Assembly (NCBI GenBank): GCA_030065205.1
Contig: JASJDN010000116.1
Span: 1 to 16,325 of the forward strand
DNA length: 16,325 bases
Direction: 5' to 3'
Origin: Crocosphaera sp.
GTDB taxonomy: Bacteria; Cyanobacteriota; Cyanobacteriia; Cyanobacteriales; Microcystaceae
Shown: positions 3,189-10,655 of the stretch, piece by piece
Numbering within the stretch: the stretch's first letter is position 1
How the letters are laid out: the number at the start of each line of letters is the position of its first letter
Translations under genes and position numbers: made by a program
Notes under the pieces: model-generated
What the model was told of the DNA's origin: nothing
Database searches by the model: none
The model's input: only the letters and a program-made list of their open reading frames with translations

Positions 3189-3551
3189 TTGAGACACAGT
3201 AGTGTGAGCATCTTGTTCACTATGTCAACAAGAAAGAAAATAAATGATTTAATGCTATCTCAGTTATGGGTAGGTCTTTGGAGTCCCGTTAGCTACAGTT
3301 ATGCTCGTCGTGGACAGCAAAAGCTCTTAGAACAGACGAAAAAACGGGGAAAAAGGTTAAATATTTTAGGTCTTTATGCCATAGGAGTTAGTTTTGACTA
3401 CGGACTAAAGCTAGGCTCTTTTAAGGGAGACTCTTACCTGAAGTTGATGGACTGGCAAGCTCAACAAGCTTCTCAACGCTTAAAAGAGACTGGACAAATC
3501 ACAGTGATTGTTCAAGATAACCATCCCATACACATGAGTAAAGTTGCATAG
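3189..3551 (+). pseudogene. Internal fragment of an IS630-family DDE transposase
   Basis: ...SPVSYSYARRGQQKLLEQTKKRGKRLNILGL...SFDYGLKLGSFKGDSYLKLMDWQAQQA...TGQITVIVQDNHPIHMSK matches the central catalytic region of cyanobacterial IS630-type transposases, including the VQDN Asp. The N-terminal HTH part and the C-terminal D/E part are missing, and the frame ends at 3551. Confidence 0.7.
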
Positions 3552-3892
3552 GATGTTAAATAGCGATCGCACCAACGTAACATGGGTAAATTTTTATGAG
3601 AAACGGCTAAGGTTCCATAGGGAATATTATTATCTAATTGTCGTTTAATAGCCTCAATAACTTAACAATCAGGTTTAAGTTGTGAGAAAATGACCAAGAG
3701 GATTTAACACTGTTAAATCCCTACAAAAGCTTATTGGTAGGGACATAATATTATTATGTCCTCATGGGTTCTCATATATCATTCCTGATTGCTATCGGAG
3801 GGGAATGCTTTCAGCTAAAACTCAGCTTTCTATCATTTACGGTTTAGTTAATTGTGAGAAGATAACAGTACGCCCATCTTACATTGTTGGTA

Positions 3893-5314
3893 ATGTTGCT
3901 GATTAAATCTTCCCCTAGTGTAAAACAACTGTTGCATCTAACTTCTCTCCGAGTTCGACTCACCCTTGGTATTGCTGCAATGTCCATTTTAGGACTGGGT
4001 GGGGTGGTTATTTGGATTAGTTGGCAAATGCAGAGTATTCTAGTCGTTACCCATAAAAATAATACAAGCTACATTGCGGAGCGTTTTCCCTCTGATGTGG
4101 AAATCTATAGCGATATGGTTTCTTTGCGAGAAGGAACTCAAAAGGCCATTGATAACCTGTCTAACCCCCAAACATTATTATGGGTGAAGAGTCCCCAAGG
4201 AGACATCTGGTCCCAGTCTCAAGTTTTGAAAATGGGAATGAGAGGAAATGATTTAGTGTCTTTGACAGATATTTCGCCTCAACCGGAATTACAACGGGTT
4301 AATAATCGTTATTGGTTGCTATGTTCGACGAAATTAGTGGTTAAAGGGGTTAATTTAGGGAATTTTTATATTGCTCAAGATATTACCAGGGATCAAATGA
4401 TGTTTTGGAGTGTCATGCGTAGTCTGTTGATTATAAGTGTCATTGCAACTATTTTCATGACCATGGCCATTGCTTGGTATATTCAAACCTCTCTGACACC
4501 GTTAAAACGGATGAGTCAGATGACACAAGATATTTGCACGGAAACGTTAGGAAAGGTACAAATTGAGTTAGAAAATGCGCCGAGTGAGGTCAAAGAATTA
4601 GCAGGAACTTTACAAACGACCTTAACCCGTCTTTCTGATGCTTGGGAAGATCAACGTCAGTTAGTCAGTAATGTTTCCCACGAGTTACGCACCCCGTTAA
4701 CGGTGGTTTCTGGTTATTTACAAAGTACCCTACGCAGGGGAAATAATTTAACGGATATCCAACGAGAAGCGTTAGCAACCGCTTCATCGGAAGCTGAGCG
4801 TACGGTTCAATTATTACAGGATTTACTCGATTTAGCTAGGGCCGAAAATGGAGGGATGTATTTTCATCTAGAAACCATTGTCCTCAATGAGTTATTACCC
4901 GAAATTGCGGGAATGGTTCATCAATATCCTATCCCTGTGCAGATTTCTCTTCCTGATGATTTAATCAAAGTGAAAGGGGATAAAAATCGCCTCAAACAAG
5001 TGTTTTTGAATTTAATCGACAATGGGGTTAAATATTCCCATTCTCCTGAACCCATTTTCCTGAAACTGAGTCAAGAGAAACAACAGGCAAAAATAGAAGT
5101 GTGCGATCGCGGTGTGGGTATTCCGTTAGCGGATCAAACTCGCATTTTTGAACGGTTTTATCGGGTGGATGAAGCAAGAAGTCGGAACGTTGGGGGAACT
5201 GGGTTAGGGTTATCTATCGTCAAAACCCTAGTAGAAGGGATGGGGGGAACTATCAAGGTTGTTTCTCAACCGGATCAAGGTACAATTTTTACGATTCTCT
5301 TTCCTTTGTCTTGA
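3893..5314 (+). CDS. Membrane sensor histidine kinase (two TM helices, periplasmic loop, HAMP, HisKA, HATPase_c)
   Basis: The recognisable boxes are H-box VSHELRTPLT, N-box LNLIDNGVKYS, G1 DRGVGIP, F-box FERFYRVD and G2 GGTGLGLSIV. The two hydrophobic helices are LGIAAMSILGLGGVVIWISW and LLIISVIATIFMTMAIAWYI. The track starts at TTG 3884; ATG 3893 is more likely. No response regulator gene is adjacent. Confidence 0.9.
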   Translation: MLLIKSSPSVKQLLHLTSLRVRLTLGIAAMSILGLGGVVIWISWQMQSILVVTHKNNTSYIAERFPSDVEIYSDMVSLREGTQKAIDNLSNPQTLLWVKSPQGDIWSQSQVLKMGMRGNDLVSLTDISPQPELQRVNNRYWLLCSTKLVVKGVNLGNFYIAQDITRDQMMFWSVMRSLLIISVIATIFMTMAIAWYIQTSLTPLKRMSQMTQDICTETLGKVQIELENAPSEVKELAGTLQTTLTRLSDAWEDQRQLVSNVSHELRTPLTVVSGYLQSTLRRGNNLTDIQREALATASSEAERTVQLLQDLLDLARAENGGMYFHLETIVLNELLPEIAGMVHQYPIPVQISLPDDLIKVKGDKNRLKQVFLNLIDNGVKYSHSPEPIFLKLSQEKQQAKIEVCDRGVGIPLADQTRIFERFYRVDEARSRNVGGTGLGLSIVKTLVEGMGGTIKVVSQPDQGTIFTILFPLS

Positions 5315-5388
5315 TCGGGTTTAATTATTTTAATAAATATGATAACTTTAAATAATTCTCTATTCCCTATTATCATAATTGATTGAGG

Positions 5389-6567
5389 ATGAATACAACA
5401 ACCAAAGAACCTAACAAATATTTATTATTATCAGGAGATGGTGAACGTCAGAAACTAGAAGTTAATTTCTGGTTAATCTCTTTGATGGGTTTATTACTAT
5501 TTATTGCCATTTATACCCTGACTTTACTGTTCTTAAGACCCACGTTTATTGGGGTTCTTTTATATGAAAGGGGGTTTACTCAATTTTTGGTCATTTATTT
5601 GGCTTGTTTTGTCGTATCTTTAACGGTCATTAAACTGATTAAATTACAACAAGAATCCTTGGCGTTACGTCGTTCTTGGGTTCCACAAACCGTTACGTTT
5701 GATAATCCGCGATCGCGGGATTTATTGACCTTACAAAACAATTTAACTAAACAGAATCAACTATTACCCATTCGTTGTAGTCGCATTTTAGGGGCTTACA
5801 TTCAGTCAGGAAGTCGTAAAATTGCCTCGGAATTAGCGTTAGATGATTCGACGTTTTATTTGAGTGCAACGGATGCTTCTTATAGCTTTCCCCGTGTTCT
5901 GGTTTGGGCGATTCCCCTATTAGGATTTATTGGTACGGTAATCGGGATTAGTCAAGCGGTTAATGGGTTTTCTAGTTTCCTGGAACAAGCGGGAGAAATT
6001 GAACAAATTAAAGAAGGAATTGGTACGGTAACCAGTGGGTTAGCGGTAGCATTTGACACCACGTTATTAGCTTTATTATTAAGTGTTTTGGTGATGATTC
6101 CTTTAGTTTTAGTAGAAAGAATGGAATCCCGTTTGCTGCTCAGAATTGATATTTATATCAATGATTTTGTGTTACCTCGTCTCAAAGAAAGAAGTGAAAA
6201 TCTAGATTACGATGGCATTAATCAGTCTATTCGTCAAGCCTTTCAAGATTATTTACCTAACCCTGAAGCATTAATTAAACCCGCAGAAATCTATGCACAA
6301 CAAGCAGCCGAAACTTTTTCAAAAAGCTTTATTTCAGAAATCGAAAAATTACAACAATTAAGCGGTAATTTAATCGAACAACTGGACAAAATCAATAACA
6401 TGAGCATCGAAGAAAAAAGCAAATTTCTTGAAATGTTAGATCAACAATTAAACGTCAATCGAGAACTTTCTCAGTCTATGATTACAGAAATTAAACACAT
6501 TCAACCTATCCTCGAAAAATTAAGTAAACCTCGTTTAATCACTTTTACCGATTCCGAAGAACTTTAA
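5389..6567 (+). CDS. MotA/TolQ/ExbB-family proton-channel protein with a roughly 150-aa C-terminal coiled-coil extension
   Basis: Four predicted TM helices are present. The last pair carries the MotA_ExbB signature (FPRVLVWAIPLLGFIGTVIGISQA ... TSGLAVAFDTTLLALLLSVLVMIPLVLVE). The tail from about residue 246 (nt about 6118) is heptad-like and rich in E/K/Q/L. The track start is TTG 5383, with an ATG at 5389. Confidence 0.85.
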   Translation: MNTTTKEPNKYLLLSGDGERQKLEVNFWLISLMGLLLFIAIYTLTLLFLRPTFIGVLLYERGFTQFLVIYLACFVVSLTVIKLIKLQQESLALRRSWVPQTVTFDNPRSRDLLTLQNNLTKQNQLLPIRCSRILGAYIQSGSRKIASELALDDSTFYLSATDASYSFPRVLVWAIPLLGFIGTVIGISQAVNGFSSFLEQAGEIEQIKEGIGTVTSGLAVAFDTTLLALLLSVLVMIPLVLVERMESRLLLRIDIYINDFVLPRLKERSENLDYDGINQSIRQAFQDYLPNPEALIKPAEIYAQQAAETFSKSFISEIEKLQQLSGNLIEQLDKINNMSIEEKSKFLEMLDQQLNVNRELSQSMITEIKHIQPILEKLSKPRLITFTDSEEL

Positions 6568-6570
6568 TTT

Positions 6571-6683
6571 ACAGTAGTTTTTATATCCATAGATTAACCA
6601 TGAAAATAAAAATTATCCCCACACTCCCCACCCATCCCACACTCAACTTAACTCAAAGATTGATACACCCCATTAAAAACTGC
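6571..6683 (+). repeat. Dispersed intergenic element (family C), copy 2, with a 3-unit nonamer array at 6618-6644
   Basis: cagtagtttttatatccatagattaac...cccacactc/cccacccat/cccacactc...accccattaaaaac aligns with 1045-1160. This copy occupies nearly all of the 120-bp gap between the MotA-like and first ExbD-like genes. Confidence 0.7.
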
Positions 6684-6687
6684 TACT

Positions 6688-7164
6688 ATGCGTCGTCGTT
6701 CTTTTGCTAAAAAATCCCTAGAAGTTGAATTGTTTCCCTTTCTTTCAATTTTAGCTTGTACCATTGGTACTCTCATTTTATTAATCATTGTTTTAACGAC
6801 TCAACTACTCAAAAATGAACGAGAAATCACCATTATTGCCAAACAAGAAACCACCGGAGAAAATCAAGGTAAAATCCCCAAATATATAGAATGCCGAGAG
6901 GATGGAATCTTATTACATCCTAGTCAAGTTTTTGTCCCTAAATCTGATATTAATAATCGGCGATCACCCCTAAATCAATTAATTCGGGAGGTACAAAAAA
7001 ACAAAGATAAACAGTATTTAATTGTTGTCCTTCGTCCCCAAGGAATTGATGTGTTTCAACAAGTTAGAGACATAGTAGAAAAACAGGGGATTGATATTGG
7101 ATACGAACCCATTGATGAAGATTGGAAATTAAAAATAGAAGAATTAACTAACAATGAGAACTAG
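6688..7164 (+). CDS. ExbD/TolR-like single-pass membrane protein (158 aa), divergent; TM Asp replaced by Ser
   Basis: The N-terminus MRRRSFAKKSLEVELFPFLSILACTIGTLILLIIVL aligns by eye with ExbD ...INVTPFIDVMLVLLIIFMV (PF-[IL]-x), with Ser20 at the Asp position. The C-terminal motif is LIVVLRPQGIDVFQQVRDIVEKQGIDIGYEP. The gene sits directly downstream of a MotA/ExbB gene. Confidence 0.55.
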   Translation: MRRRSFAKKSLEVELFPFLSILACTIGTLILLIIVLTTQLLKNEREITIIAKQETTGENQGKIPKYIECREDGILLHPSQVFVPKSDINNRRSPLNQLIREVQKNKDKQYLIVVLRPQGIDVFQQVRDIVEKQGIDIGYEPIDEDWKLKIEELTNNEN

Positions 7165-7855
7165 AAGATATCGTCATTTAAACTCACCCAATCAAAACCT
7201 AGATTCTTTCTTAGATATTTTGACCAATACCGTCGGTGTATTAATGTTTATTAGTTTATTTATTACCGTTGTTGCAGTGGAATCAAGTACCATTGTTACC
7301 ACACCTTTAGTATCTAATACTGAGAAAAAACCCCGATTTTTTGAAGTCAGAAATAATAAAATCTCTTATATCAATGATGAAGAAATTGATCGTCAAATTA
7401 CTCTGTTAATGAAAAATCTTCCTGAATGTTCTGTCCCTGAACTTCCCACTAACTTAGACACTTACACTTATCAATATTATCTCAATCGTATTCAAGAATA
7501 TGAAAATTGTCGAGCGCAAACCCTTCAAAGTTTTCAACGGTTTAGAGGAGAAACGGAACATTACAAAGTCAAATTTTATGACCTTGATGCACTTATTTAT
7601 GAACCCATAACTCCCGAAACAGGAGAATCTTATAAAACCATTGCTCAAACGGATTCCAGTTTTAATCAAACCTTAGAAAAGTTTGATCCTCAAACAGATT
7701 ATTTAGCATTTTTAGTCCGTCCCGATAGTTTTTCTGCGTTTAGAATGGCGAGAAAACAAGCATGGAAAGCAGGATATAATGTCGGTTGGGAACCGTTAAA
7801 ACAAGAAACTCCTATTGTGTTTGGTTCCAACGGCAGAACCGTGGGAGTACAATAA
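7154..7855 (+). CDS. ExbD/TolR-like single-pass membrane protein (233 aa), paralogue of the preceding gene; retains the TM Asp
   Basis: The N-terminus is MRTRRYRHLNSPNQNLDSFLDILTNTVGVLMFISLFI, with Asp21 (codon 7214-7216) at the ExbD/TolR/MotB Asp position. The C-terminal motif LAFLVRPDSFSAFRMARKQAWKAGYNVGWEP parallels that of the 158-aa protein. The start overlaps the upstream stop by 11 nt. Confidence 0.55.
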   Translation: MRTRRYRHLNSPNQNLDSFLDILTNTVGVLMFISLFITVVAVESSTIVTTPLVSNTEKKPRFFEVRNNKISYINDEEIDRQITLLMKNLPECSVPELPTNLDTYTYQYYLNRIQEYENCRAQTLQSFQRFRGETEHYKVKFYDLDALIYEPITPETGESYKTIAQTDSSFNQTLEKFDPQTDYLAFLVRPDSFSAFRMARKQAWKAGYNVGWEPLKQETPIVFGSNGRTVGVQ

Positions 7856-7886: not shown

Positions 7887-8327
7887 ATGTCAATTTTTCA
7901 CACCTTATTAAAGCTATCCACTGACGAAAGTATTGGTTTCTATAATATTACCGAATCTGTACAGCAATTTATTAACACAACTAACATAAAAAATGGCCAA
8001 GTTATTGTTTTCTCAAGACATACAACCACTGCACTTGTTATCAACGAAGATGAAACCCGATTATTAGAAGATATCAAAACCTATTTAACCAAATTAGCTC
8101 CCCCCACAGACGCTTATTTGCACAATGATTTACATTTACGAGATGTCCCTCCTGATGAACCCGAAAACGCTCATTCTCATCTCATGGCCATGACGTTAAG
8201 TACCAGTGAAATTATCCCTATTGTAGACGGAAAATTAGCCCTTGGAACCTATCAATCTTTGATGTTAGTAGAATTAGATGGACCCAGACAACGGACTGTT
8301 TTTGTTCAAGTATGTGGTGAAAGTTAA
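7887..8327 (+). CDS. yjbQ: YjbQ/UPF0047-family protein (annotated in databases as secondary thiamine-phosphate synthase enzyme)
   Basis: The family pattern is ...NITESVQQFI...NGQVIVFSRHTTTALVINEDE...HNDLH...ENAHSHLMA...GKLALGTYQSLMLVELDGPRQRTV. The gene lies 31 nt downstream of the preceding gene on the same strand. Confidence 0.85.
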   Translation: MSIFHTLLKLSTDESIGFYNITESVQQFINTTNIKNGQVIVFSRHTTTALVINEDETRLLEDIKTYLTKLAPPTDAYLHNDLHLRDVPPDEPENAHSHLMAMTLSTSEIIPIVDGKLALGTYQSLMLVELDGPRQRTVFVQVCGES

Positions 8328-8330
8328 TGA

Positions 8331-8433
8331 ATATAGCATTTTTCGGACTCATGAGGTACACCTAACTCCTGCCTACTGCCTCCTGCCTCAAAGCGATCAC
8401 CTTTGTACCTCACAAGTATGGGAACTGCTATAT
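8331..8433. repeat. Foldback repeat (family B), complete copy, containing a CCTGCCT heptamer triplet
   Basis: atatagcatttttcggactcatgaggtac ... gtacctcacaagtatgggaactgctatat form imperfect terminal inverted arms. The central cctgcct/actgcct/cctgcct heptamers are present. The copy starts 4 nt after the yjbQ stop. One arm recurs inverted at 10875-10932. Confidence 0.65.
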
Positions 8434-8515
8434 TCACAGTATCAGAAAAGATAGTTAGATAGGAGTCAATAGTTATTGACCCCTATAATATTAACGTTGA
8501 TTATTTAAGGTTATA

Positions 8516-9010
8516 TTACTTAGTTAAATGCTGTATTTTGCTCAAAAAAGAGTTTTGATATTTGATCAATCCCATAGCTTCACATCCACTAGAAATTACT
8601 CCCATTGAGACTAAACCAATAGATAATAATCCCATCGTTACTGTCCCACAAGAGATTAAACCCATCGGAACAATTCCGATAGAAATCACTCCCATTGGAA
8701 CAATTCCAATAGAAATTACTCCCATTGGAACAATTCCGATAGAAAATAAAGGTAATCCCATTGGGTTATGGTGATGAGAATGAGTCAGAGATGGAGAAAA
8801 TAAATGACTAAGATGATGAATATCTATGGGATAAATTATAGTCCCTAAAACTAACATTAAGATGAGACTTAGAAGGATTATAATAAAAAAAATATTACCC
8901 CTTAGTTGTCCGTTATTAATTAATAATAACTTAGAAATGCTTTGCTCTTTAATGATGGTTTGATTGGTCGTATCTGTTTCTTGAAGTTGCTGAATTGTTT
9001 GAGCGTTCAT
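8516..9010 (-). CDS. Hypothetical membrane protein with a His cluster and a tandem hydrophobic Gly-containing decapeptide array
   Basis: The 164-aa ORF has an N-terminal polar region, a TM helix (IFFIIILLSLILMLVLGTIIYPI) and a His-rich segment (HHLSHLFSPSLTHSHHHNP). These are followed by PMGLPLFSIGIVPMGVISIGIVPMGVISIGIVPMGLISCGTVTMGLLSIGLVSMGVISSGCEAMGLI. I do not recognise the family with confidence. Confidence 0.6.
   Translation of the reverse strand: MNAQTIQQLQETDTTNQTIIKEQSISKLLLINNGQLRGNIFFIIILLSLILMLVLGTIIYPIDIHHLSHLFSPSLTHSHHHNPMGLPLFSIGIVPMGVISIGIVPMGVISIGIVPMGLISCGTVTMGLLSIGLVSMGVISSGCEAMGLIKYQNSFLSKIQHLTK
8561..8770. repeat. Seven in-register 30-bp tandem repeats inside CDS 8516-9010
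   Basis: The units begin at 8561, 8591, 8621, 8651, 8681, 8711 and 8741. The three central units (8651-8740; agaaatYactcccattggaacaattccRat) are nearly identical, and the outer units are progressively diverged. Both strands are open across the array. Confidence 0.85.
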
Positions 9011-9261
9011 TGTTTTTAAGTTGCGGGGATAACATTGGTAGATAATGTTAGTGTTCCCATAAAAGTCTTGAAAATAAACAAGACTATAAAAAATACTTAA
9101 CCTTAAGTTAAGAGTAATTAATAAATAATTATTTCCTTGACTTTAGCTCAATAGATTAAAAAATTAAACAAATCTTCACATTCATGATACATTGATTAAG
9201 AATGGGACTAACTTAACTAAACGTTAGCCTGCACAAGACCTCACAAAGATAAGGATAAATT

Positions 9262-10221
9262 ATGCCTTTTACTTTAGATTCAGCCCGTAATATTTTTCCG
9301 AATACCTTAGCTGCTGATGCTGTTCCTGCAACTATCGCCAGATTTGAGCAACTCAGCGCCGAGGACCAACTGGCTCTCATTTGGTTTGCTTACTTAGAGA
9401 TGGGTAAAAATATCACCGTTGCTGCTCCTGGTGCGGCCAATATGCAGTTTGCTGAAGGTACGATTAAAGAGATCATTAACATGACCCCTTTAGAGCAAAG
9501 TCAGGCAATGTGCGACTTAGCCAACCGTGCCGATACATCCGTCAGTCGGACTTATGCGACTTGGAGTCCTAATATCAAGCTTGGTTTTTGGTACGAACTA
9601 GGAAGATTAATGGAACAGGGCAAAGTTGCTCCTATTCCTCAAGGTTATAAGCTGTCGGCTAATGCTAATGCTGTCCTCGTAACCATTACAGGTTTAGAAC
9701 CAGGTCAACAAATTACCGTTCTTCGCAATTGTGTGGTGGATATGGGTTATGACCCCAGTAAAATGAGCAATTTCCAAAAGATTAGTGAACCGGTTGTCCC
9801 CCCCAAAGAAATTGGACAACGGACTCAAGTGAAGATTGAAGGGGTTGACAATGCAACTATCCTTAGCTACATGAATAACTTAAATGCGAATGACTTTGAT
9901 GCTCTCATCGCATTATTCACCGAAGATGGAGCCTTACAACCTCCCTTCCGCAGACCGATTGTTGGTAAAGAAAACGTGCTGCGTTTCTTCCGTGAAGAAT
10001 GTCAAAATCTTAATTTAATTCCCGAACGCGGAGTCAGTGAACCGGCTGACGATGGTTTCACTCAAATTAAAGTCACAGGAACCTGTCAAACCCCTTGGTT
10101 TGGTGGTGGTGTTGGTATGAATATTGCTTGGCGATTTTTGTTGAATCCTGAAAATAAAATTTTCTTTGTGGCCATTGATTTATTGGCTTCTCCCAAAGAA
10201 CTATTGAACTTAGTTCGTTAA
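9262..10221 (+). CDS. ocp: Orange carotenoid protein (OCP1-type; N-terminal carotenoid-binding domain plus NTF2-like C-terminal domain)
   Basis: The 319-aa protein MPFTLDSARNIFPNTLAADAVPATIARFEQLSAEDQLALIWFAYLEMGK...QITVLRNCVVDMGY...NIAWRFLLNPENKIFFVAIDLLASPKELLNL is near-collinear with my memory of the Arthrospira and Synechocystis OCP sequences. It is followed by an FRP gene. Confidence 0.97.
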   Translation: MPFTLDSARNIFPNTLAADAVPATIARFEQLSAEDQLALIWFAYLEMGKNITVAAPGAANMQFAEGTIKEIINMTPLEQSQAMCDLANRADTSVSRTYATWSPNIKLGFWYELGRLMEQGKVAPIPQGYKLSANANAVLVTITGLEPGQQITVLRNCVVDMGYDPSKMSNFQKISEPVVPPKEIGQRTQVKIEGVDNATILSYMNNLNANDFDALIALFTEDGALQPPFRRPIVGKENVLRFFREECQNLNLIPERGVSEPADDGFTQIKVTGTCQTPWFGGGVGMNIAWRFLLNPENKIFFVAIDLLASPKELLNLVR

Positions 10222-10325
10222 TTGGGAAAATTTTTGCTATATTTTTAAGAATAGTAAAATCACAATTAATACGATAGATACGCTCTACTGGTTAGGGCGT
10301 ATTCTAATGACTTCAAAATTCCGCT

Positions 10326-10655
10326 ATGAATACGAACACTCAACAATCATTAGAAACAGATCAAAAAATTGCCCAAGAAGCATTGAAAAAAGCTTATGCT
10401 AGAGAAACGGAAGCACTGGTGGCTGAAATTACTCAAAAAGCCAGTTGCATCACTGATATTAACGACATTTGGGCTTTAAGTGACTATTTGAACAGTCAAC
10501 GCTACAATATCGATGGTAAGTATGACTGTCGAGAGTCTACGTCCCTTTTTGTATTGGCTCAATTGGTTAAAGAAAGATGGTTAACCCTTGATGAATTAAG
10601 CGGTTTAACCCCTTCGACAAAAGCAAAATTAACTGCGTTGGCAAAGATGTCCTAA
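10326..10655 (+). CDS. frp: Fluorescence recovery protein (FRP)
   Basis: The 109-aa protein lies immediately downstream of ocp. The motif ...ALKKAYARE...DIWALSDYLNSQRYNIDGKYDCRESTSLFVLAQLVKE... matches the remembered Synechocystis Slr1964 pattern (...LFRKAYQRE...LWKLHDFLSAKRHEIDGKYDDRQSVIIFVFAQLLKE...). Confidence 0.9.
   Translation: MNTNTQQSLETDQKIAQEALKKAYARETEALVAEITQKASCITDINDIWALSDYLNSQRYNIDGKYDCRESTSLFVLAQLVKERWLTLDELSGLTPSTKAKLTALAKMS

Follow-up and report, generated by a model that had tools for sequence, protein, structure and literature searches.

Ion-driven motors of the MotA/ExbB-TolQ plus ExbD/TolR superfamily are known from their roles with TonB and Tol-Pal, in the flagellum, in gliding, and in Zorya. 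To our knowledge, every structurally solved motor of the superfamily contains two identical axle subunits, and one transmembrane (TM) aspartate is essential in ExbD, TolR, and MotB, with D25 of ExbD being equivalent to D23 of TolR. The Myxococcus AglR-AglQ-AglS gliding motor combines one TolQ/MotA-like gene with two different TolR-like genes; AglR has no long tail, and AglQ and AglS both keep the TM aspartate. Among cyanobacteria, a three-gene unit has been recorded in Synechocystis sp. PCC 6803, sll0477-sll0478-sll0479 (TU3083), annotated as 'ExbB-like' followed by two genes marked 'HP' and up 6.7-fold on iron depletion (PMC4195498). Under the names exbB, exbD3, and exbD4, these genes are included among the ExbB-ExbD sets, and a Fur box is recorded for strain 6803 (PMC8634477). 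Here we describe three genes, A, B, and C, on a 16,325-nucleotide (nt) stretch of a Crocosphaera sp. contig (JASJDN010000116.1), a stretch referred to as a whole as the window. We propose with moderate confidence that they encode a stand-alone inner-membrane ion-driven motor that represents a distinct subfamily of this superfamily, a cassette to which none of the named roles fits.

The first-pass annotation of the window had read three linked, co-directional genes encoding 392, 158, and 233 amino acids (aa), and this is borne out by the list of open reading frames (ORFs; Table 1). They are not chance ORFs, because each has hundreds of homologs (1178 for A, 545 for B, and 414 for C at E <= 1e-3). 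A TTG at 5383 would give A a length of 394 aa; started from the ATG at 5389, A has 392 aa and is identical to the NCBI-annotated MDJ0662122.1. C is 100% identical to QNJ42_21955, a protein from a Crocosphaera sp. metagenome-assembled genome (MAG), and A and B lie with it on one 33-kb contig. Close relatives are C. watsonii, C. subtropica (where cce_1739 is B), C. chwakensis, and 'Cyanothece', and no literature was found on cce_1738-1740. Database labels for the cassette are 'MotA/TolQ/ExbB family' and two hypotheticals. In the matching passages of a survey of MotAB stators and their non-flagellar relatives the subfamily is not described, nor is it in those of a survey of TonB/TolA force transducers. 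The overlap of B and C by 11 nt, which was read directly from the sequence (…AAC AATG AGA ACT AG…), arises because the ATG of C (7154) lies inside the 3' end of B, whose TAG occupies 7162-7164. The translational coupling previously suggested for this pair is plausible, and in further lineages too the two genes overlap, by 4-11 nt (4 nt in Gloeothece and Chroococcidiopsis).

A hydropathy scan gives A four TM segments and gives B and C one N-terminal TM segment apiece. For A, the proposed identity as a four-TM channel protein of the MotA/TolQ/ExbB type is further upheld by a match to Pfam MotA_ExbB (PF01618) over residues 165-242, with 29.2 bits against a curated cut-off of 22.9 (E 8.3e-7), and PF01618 had been annotated beforehand on nearly all A homologs. 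Sequence comparison thereby places A in the MotA/ExbB superfamily. The core holds PLLGFIGTVxGI, with T185, and AFDTT, with D225 and T227 (AFDTTLLAL in the family alignment). These three residues are invariant in alignment A3, which comprises 43 A homologs, and in a further alignment, A4; two non-cyanobacterial members are included, in which D225 of TM4 is also kept. When A4 was compared by hhalign with an E. coli ExbB sequence, residues 176-244 of A fell on residues 139-194 of ExbB (E 1.6e-4, probability 50%), TM3-TM4 of A aligned with TM2-TM3 of ExbB, and T185 and T227 stood in register with T148 and T181, respectively.

In A3, the conserved TM1-TM2 is followed by a loop of ~85 aa, TM3-TM4, and a helical tail. 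Large internal indels let this tail vary from ~150 aa in Crocosphaera to ~440 aa, and whole A proteins from 392 to 682 aa, yet the last ~25 residues are conserved (LKPxLEKLSKPRxITxVE). Given a MotA-type topology, the tail would be cytoplasmic. In the PDB, the matches of the full-length A profile were confined to coiled coils and the ZorA tail, all within the tail region.

That B and C are two distinct, paralogous single-pass partners, as the first-pass annotation had it, is now well supported at the profile level. Alignments of 71 homologs each (A1 for B and A2 for C) matched each other by hhalign with a probability of 98% (E 1.6e-13), and the match runs from the N-terminal TM helix through the C-terminal beta-alpha-beta unit. 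In these terms, C is B plus a middle insertion of ~80 aa, a helical/sheet subdomain with conserved Cys92 and Cys119. AlphaFold2 models reached a predicted local distance difference test score of 77 for B and 77.6 for C. After its TM helix, the B model runs beta-beta-beta-alpha-beta-alpha-beta(-beta), and its top Foldseek match in the PDB is E. coli TolR (5by4; E 7e-3, prob 0.99, target-normalised template modelling score 0.51), the kind of fold that had been expected of it. Pfam ExbD (PF02472) is the sole Pfam family matched by many B homologs; its matches are weak and below cut-off (20 of 71 homologs, best E 1.4e-4), and among the C homologs there are none (0 of 71). B and C of the window itself gave nothing against Pfam ExbD at E <= 1 and no match in Pfam, NCBIfam, or PADLOC. 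We therefore regard B, with moderate confidence, as a remote ExbD/TolR-type protein, for which the fold evidence from the predicted structure is moderate and the sequence evidence lies at the detection limit; the sole tie of C to the TolR/ExbD fold is its paralogy with B.

The C model, for its part, found its best Foldseek matches in the PDB among CARF-domain proteins (SSO1393, Cam1, and the ring nuclease Sis0811; E 0.04-0.3, template modelling score at most 0.25). This likeness is probably a generic alpha/beta similarity, though a curious one given the type III CRISPR context of the cassette in Nostocales.

The two partners part company at the residue on which the known axles depend. In the hhalign register, TolR EINIVPLLDVL corresponds to EVELFPFLSIL in B and NQNLDSFLDIL in C; the TolR sequence used here matched PDB TolR chains over residues 1-142 (291 bits), and support against this single sequence is local to the TM helix alone. 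The TM motif of B, ELFPFLSILACTIGTL, carries Ser20 (codon 6745-6747) at the position of TolR Asp23, whereas that of C, NLDSFLDILTNTVG, carries Asp21 (codon 7214-7216) in register with TolR D23. Asp21 is invariant in A2, and no exception occurs among the 97 C proteins aligned from the full set of loci. Ser20 is invariant in A1, and across 81 aligned B loci the residue is Ser in 74 and Asp in 7; in more distant single-domain relatives of B, Asp is frequent. Judged by alignment, B and C thus differ at the single position that ExbD, TolR, and MotB cannot do without. The D21 highlighted by the first-pass annotation applies to C and does not extend to B.

Compared with ExbB-ExbD and TolQ-TolR, the cassette shares a MotA_ExbB core in which the GTVxG and TT motifs fall on ExbB T148 and T181, two partners predicted to be N-in single-pass proteins with an ExbD/TolR-type TM motif and an alpha/beta periplasmic domain, a TM aspartate in C, and a gene order with the channel gene first and the axle genes after it. 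It differs in the four TM segments and the 150-440-aa coiled-coil tail of A, in having two non-identical axle paralogs instead of one, in the Ser for Asp of B, in the ~80-aa insertion and conserved Cys pair of C, and in having no TonB, TolA, or Pal linked to it, all at a similarity close to the limit of detection.

From these features a working model can be drawn. Subunits of A would form a ring around the TM helices of B and C, a pentamer by analogy with all solved relatives. B and C would most likely act as one B-C heterodimer, because they are paralogs whose genes always lie side by side, often with translational coupling. The proton path may lie between Asp21 of C and the TM3/TM4 face of A (T185, D225, and T226/T227). 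With Ser20 in B instead of Asp, only one site of the axle would be protonatable, which would make the axle asymmetric and B its non-protonatable partner. Through their TolR-like periplasmic domains, B and C could connect the motor with a component of the envelope, and the coiled-coil tail of A, with its species-dependent length, is a possible second output or regulatory arm on the cytoplasmic side. Such a motor most likely serves to energise some process of the envelope or of uptake, and motility is the less likely use. An axle made of two different paralogs, with the proton-binding Asp on just one of them, would offer a natural test of whether rotation needs both sites.

The cassette is widespread, indeed near-universal, in cyanobacteria and also occurs beyond them. 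The A-B-C order is present in Gloeothece PCC 7424, Chroococcidiopsis, Oxynema, Lusitaniella, Symploca, Caldora, and Nostocales, and on three non-cyanobacterial contigs (L026, L027, and L029). In L027, A has 618 aa, B has 165 aa and an Asp, and C has 212 aa (99.9% to the C profile); in L026, B has 789 aa (8001-10370) with a coiled coil, proline/glycine-rich linkers, and repeated domains. A metagenome scan added 79 loci. With ORFs called anew and searched with hidden Markov models, 77 loci had sufficient upstream sequence to be counted. The trio, whose synteny the first-pass annotation had proposed to examine, is arranged as A-B-C in 59 of these 77 and in the same order behind a gene-caller or frameshift artefact in 4; B-C without A accounts for 4 and C alone for 10. 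At two loci from Crocosphaera MAGs, the kinase and A are present and a sulfite/nitrite-reductase-like gene takes the place of B and C. Split cassettes were noted at L010 and L011 (8001-9185), L038 (6677-7871), and L077.

Standalone C-like genes retain an intact Asp motif (L097, L101, L104, and L110, with C at ~10001-10654; also L080, L085, L087, and L094). Several C-alone contigs are GC-rich, with hisF after C and DUF3177 and CofD genes upstream, and from their composition and gene content we read them as picocyanobacteria-like; at other C-alone loci, a LapA-domain gene follows C.

An exhaustive search of a representative library with the B profile returned 2992 cluster representatives at E <= 1e-3, including proteins of 400-970 aa in which the B domain occurs two to three times, along with secreted B-C fusions (P0382), none of them with a Pfam family. 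Outside cyanobacteria, long B-type subunits of 500-970 aa (P0383, P0391, P0400, and others) have the same kind of TM motif, FPFL(A/S)VLLC followed by a long coiled coil, proline/glycine-rich low-complexity linkers, and two to three B-domain copies. B-like domain proteins that fall in no Pfam family number in the thousands, a gap in the domain databases.

Several results weigh against reading the cassette as a motor of this superfamily or mark the similarity as remote. The A core profile matched no PDB chain at all, whether of ExbB, MotA, or the ZorA core, the B and C profiles found no ExbD or TolR chain there by sequence (C gave no PDB sequence match of any kind), and the whole-chain model of C had no convincing fold match in the PDB by Foldseek. 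In addition, A, B, and C are not obligatorily co-encoded, because loci with B-C, with C alone, or with A alone exist. A broader proposal, which we regard as rather doubtful, would go beyond the stand-alone motor. It would make the cassette a new class of ring-and-axle ion motor across several phyla, with an obligate heterodimeric axle of proton-binding C and non-protonatable B and a length-variable cytoplasmic coiled-coil arm. Such a housekeeping relative of Zorya would need neither TonB nor TolA to link an event at the envelope with an output or signal in the cytoplasm, and in other phyla B would have grown into a periplasm-spanning transducer.

The use of the motor has to be weighed against the genes around it. 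The first-pass annotation called the cassette an orphan, and family scans of the other window ORFs of at least 80 aa indeed gave no match to TonB, TolA, Pal, a TonB-dependent receptor, OmpA, or ZorB-D. The same holds by synteny: in a Pfam scan of 125 genes at +/-2 positions in 34 lineages, TonB, TonB-dependent receptors, Plug, and OmpA did not recur, so that the consistent linkage to tonB and receptor genes expected of a TonB energising complex was not found. The commonest neighbour families were LapA_dom (5), histidine kinase (4), receiver (3), and RuvA (3), the rest being scattered housekeeping genes, and the flanks vary between lineages. The cassette is thus without conserved linked partners.

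This neighbourhood bears first on the possibility that the cassette serves as a normal Ton energiser, namely as a divergent ExbB-ExbD-ExbD set driving unlinked TonB and TonB-dependent receptors in iron uptake. ExbB-ExbD1-ExbD2 operons occur in other bacteria, and some B proteins are labelled 'ExbD/TolR' or ExbD in JGI and UniRef. The iron-starvation-induced Synechocystis genes exbB, exbD3, and exbD4, already counted among ExbB-ExbD sets, speak in the same sense, and C. watsonii and CCY0110 have one to two TonB-like genes and one TonB-dependent receptor (PMC2771747). The lack of recurring TonB, receptor, or Plug genes beside the cassette argues against it, as do the long coiled-coil tail of A (in proteins of 392-682 aa), which ExbB does not have, the missing essential Asp of B, and the marginal similarity to ExbB and ExbD. 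Moreover, C occurs alone on picocyanobacteria-like contigs, and Prochlorococcus has no TonB-dependent receptors (PMC2771747). On balance we consider this explanation unlikely, while ranking it first among the rivals, ahead of a Tol-like or lipopolysaccharide (LPS)-related envelope role, a Zorya-like sensor, and a gliding motor, in that order.

The Synechocystis unit deserves separate comment. It is fairly likely to be orthologous to A-B-C, a lead that comes from the annotation pattern: both are three-gene cyanobacterial units with an 'ExbB-like' first gene and two hypothetical genes after it. Synechocystis was not among the matches listed in the homolog searches with A, B, and C. The cassette has probably been counted already, without analysis, as the third ExbBD set in Synechocystis. 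The Crocosphaera copy differs in that it follows a sensor kinase, has no iron-related gene within the 16-kb window, and has no Fur box called; the spacer between the kinase and A was examined for one, and no call was made and no operator was assigned. Many basal cyanobacteria have ExbB/ExbD homologs without TonB (10.1101/2021.11.08.467730). If the cassette is the counterpart of sll0477-0479, it may bear on this puzzle, and Synechocystis would provide a tractable model for finding the client of the motor. An insertion mutant in Anabaena exbB2 (alr4587), a possible relative of A, does not grow without fixed nitrogen (PMC8262864).

The commonest conserved neighbour points elsewhere. A gene for a LapA-domain protein (LPS assembly protein A) of 70-80 aa lies directly after C at 19 loci in 7 of 39 lineages. 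One non-cyanobacterial locus stands beside fabZ-lpxA and a SurA-like gene, and one cyanobacterial locus beside NlpC/P60 and Mur ligase genes. Together with TolR as the best fold match of B and the resemblance of the extended B of other phyla to periplasm-spanning proteins of the TolA/TonB type, this would suit a motor for Tol-like or LPS/outer-membrane homeostasis, in which the cassette substitutes for TolQRA-Pal and works on peptidoglycan or the outer membrane through the periplasmic parts of B and C. The LapA linkage is nevertheless confined to those 7 lineages and absent from the window, and no Pal, TolB, or OmpA partner was found; we judge this role less likely still than Ton energising. 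A representative LapA-domain gene is at 8186-8398 of locus L087, and the window has no LapA gene.

The tail of A recalls Zorya instead. Like ZorA, A is a MotA-like ring protein with a long, variable C-terminal coiled-coil tail; ZorA models are its nearest subfamily models in NCBIfam and PADLOC (best matches E 3e-5 to 4e-6, with PADLOC ZorA models spanning 1e-5 to 1e-2), and among motor proteins its profile matched just the ZorA tail in the PDB. Some copies also lie in defence islands, including the only two plasmid copies found. On pANACY.03 of Anabaena cylindrica (L031), the cassette follows type III-B Cmr genes near a viperin-family gene, and on p1 of Microcystis NIES-2481 (L030) it sits amid methylase, SLATT, helicase, DUF559, HNH, and GIY-YIG genes. 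In Cuspidothrix (L032), Cmr genes and two proteins without a family match precede A-B-C; at the A. cylindrica-type loci L023 and L031, a CARF-HEPN gene lies between Cmr and A, directly upstream of A in L023; and the Tolypothrix copy has transposase and XRE neighbours. A Zorya-like anti-phage sensor, in which the MotA-like ring reports phage damage to the envelope through its cytoplasmic tail, is therefore worth considering.

However, the ZorA matches cover the shared channel core only and score far below the cut-off (26 bits against 100 for ZorA_2). A has two different partners, B and C, which have no ZorB-type peptidoglycan-binding (OmpA-like) domain, and no ZorC/D/E/F/G effectors accompany the cassette: no ZorC/D/E-like effector is conserved, and none is adjacent in the window. 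Defence neighbours occur in about 3 of 34 lineages, with mostly housekeeping flanks elsewhere, and no phage or IMG/VR copies were found. The family tracks cyanobacterial phylogeny at 45-95% identity, and its distribution looks vertical. The defence reading was accordingly down-weighted after the 34-lineage survey, and we give it only a slight probability.

Gliding finds still less favour. An AglRQS-type gliding or surface-motility motor has in common with the cassette only the count of genes, one MotA-like and two TolR-like, and the architectural parallel drawn by the first-pass annotation reduces to this. That annotation had also supposed a filamentous gliding host, which is wrong because Crocosphaera is unicellular, and nothing ties A-B-C to gliding. 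No gliding, type IV pilus, or Glt-like genes recurred among the surveyed neighbours, the hosts are alike unicellular, baeocystous, and filamentous lineages, and the families are not specifically related, B and C being not detectably nearer to AglQ and AglS than to any other TolR. We hold this explanation to be very improbable. The stand-alone envelope motor proposed above remains our preferred reading, and its position within the window is summarised in Table 1.

Table 1. Positions of the A-B-C cassette, its parts, and its nearest flanking features in the window.
Feature	Position	Strand	Description	Basis
Sensor histidine kinase	3884..5314	+	two-TM, HisKA + HATPase_c	Pfam and NCBIfam matches
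Gene A	5389..6567	+	392-aa four-TM MotA/ExbB-superfamily channel subunit	ORF list, Pfam, hydropathy
TM3-loop-TM4 core of A	5875..6108	+	residues 165-242 (TTG numbering)	Pfam match region
C-terminal tail of A	6115..6564	+	~150 aa here, predicted helical/coiled-coil	alignment A3, PDB profile search
A-B spacer	6568..6687	+	~120 nt, with small dispersed repeat	
Gene B	6688..7164	+	158-aa single-pass ExbD/TolR-like subunit	
B stop/C start overlap	7154..7164	+	11 nt	sequence read directly
Gene C	7154..7855	+	233-aa single-pass paralog of B	
YjbQ/UPF0047	7887..8327	+	31 nt after C	

The same-strand kinase upstream and YjbQ gene downstream that had been noted earlier are in place, the kinase ending 74 nt before the ATG of A and YjbQ beginning at the distance given in the table, but neither is a general partner. 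Both candidates were rejected on synteny: a kinase ortholog lies directly upstream of A in 3 of 39 lineages (Crocosphaera, 'SU2', and Gloeothece PCC 7424), and YjbQ adjoins C in this window only. The kinase is thus a clade-specific neighbour and a possible regulator. The AT-rich spacer between it and A (5315-5388, …TATGATAACTTTAAATAATTCTCTATTCCC…) is kept in most Crocosphaera and shrinks to ~30 nt in L006, L010, L011, and L012, which suggests co-transcription of A with the kinase at those loci.

Among the other window ORFs of at least 80 aa are a GlmU-like protein, a DDE transposase fragment, a GLTT-repeat protein, the orange carotenoid protein (OCP), the fluorescence recovery protein (FRP), a lipase, an AAA ATPase, a PPC-domain protein, CobS, a cupin, and one protein without a family match. 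An Rfam scan gave no matches, and promoter and terminator scans gave counts not above those in shuffled sequence. The OCP gene (Carot_N + NTF2, 9262-10221) and the FRP gene that follows it (10326-10655) form a standard photoprotection pair. Between the GlmU-like gene and the kinase, a 120-aa ORF (3189-3551) with a weak DDE_3 match is probably a transposase remnant. A dispersed repeat of ~110 nt containing CCCACACTCCCCACCCnTCCCACACTC lies between A and B in this strain only, the A-B gap at other Crocosphaera loci being 6-16 nt, and the repeat is a strain-specific insertion outside the system. It looks like a small element of the miniature inverted-repeat transposable element type, and a second copy, where none is expected by chance, lies at ~1045-1150, upstream of the GlmU-like gene.

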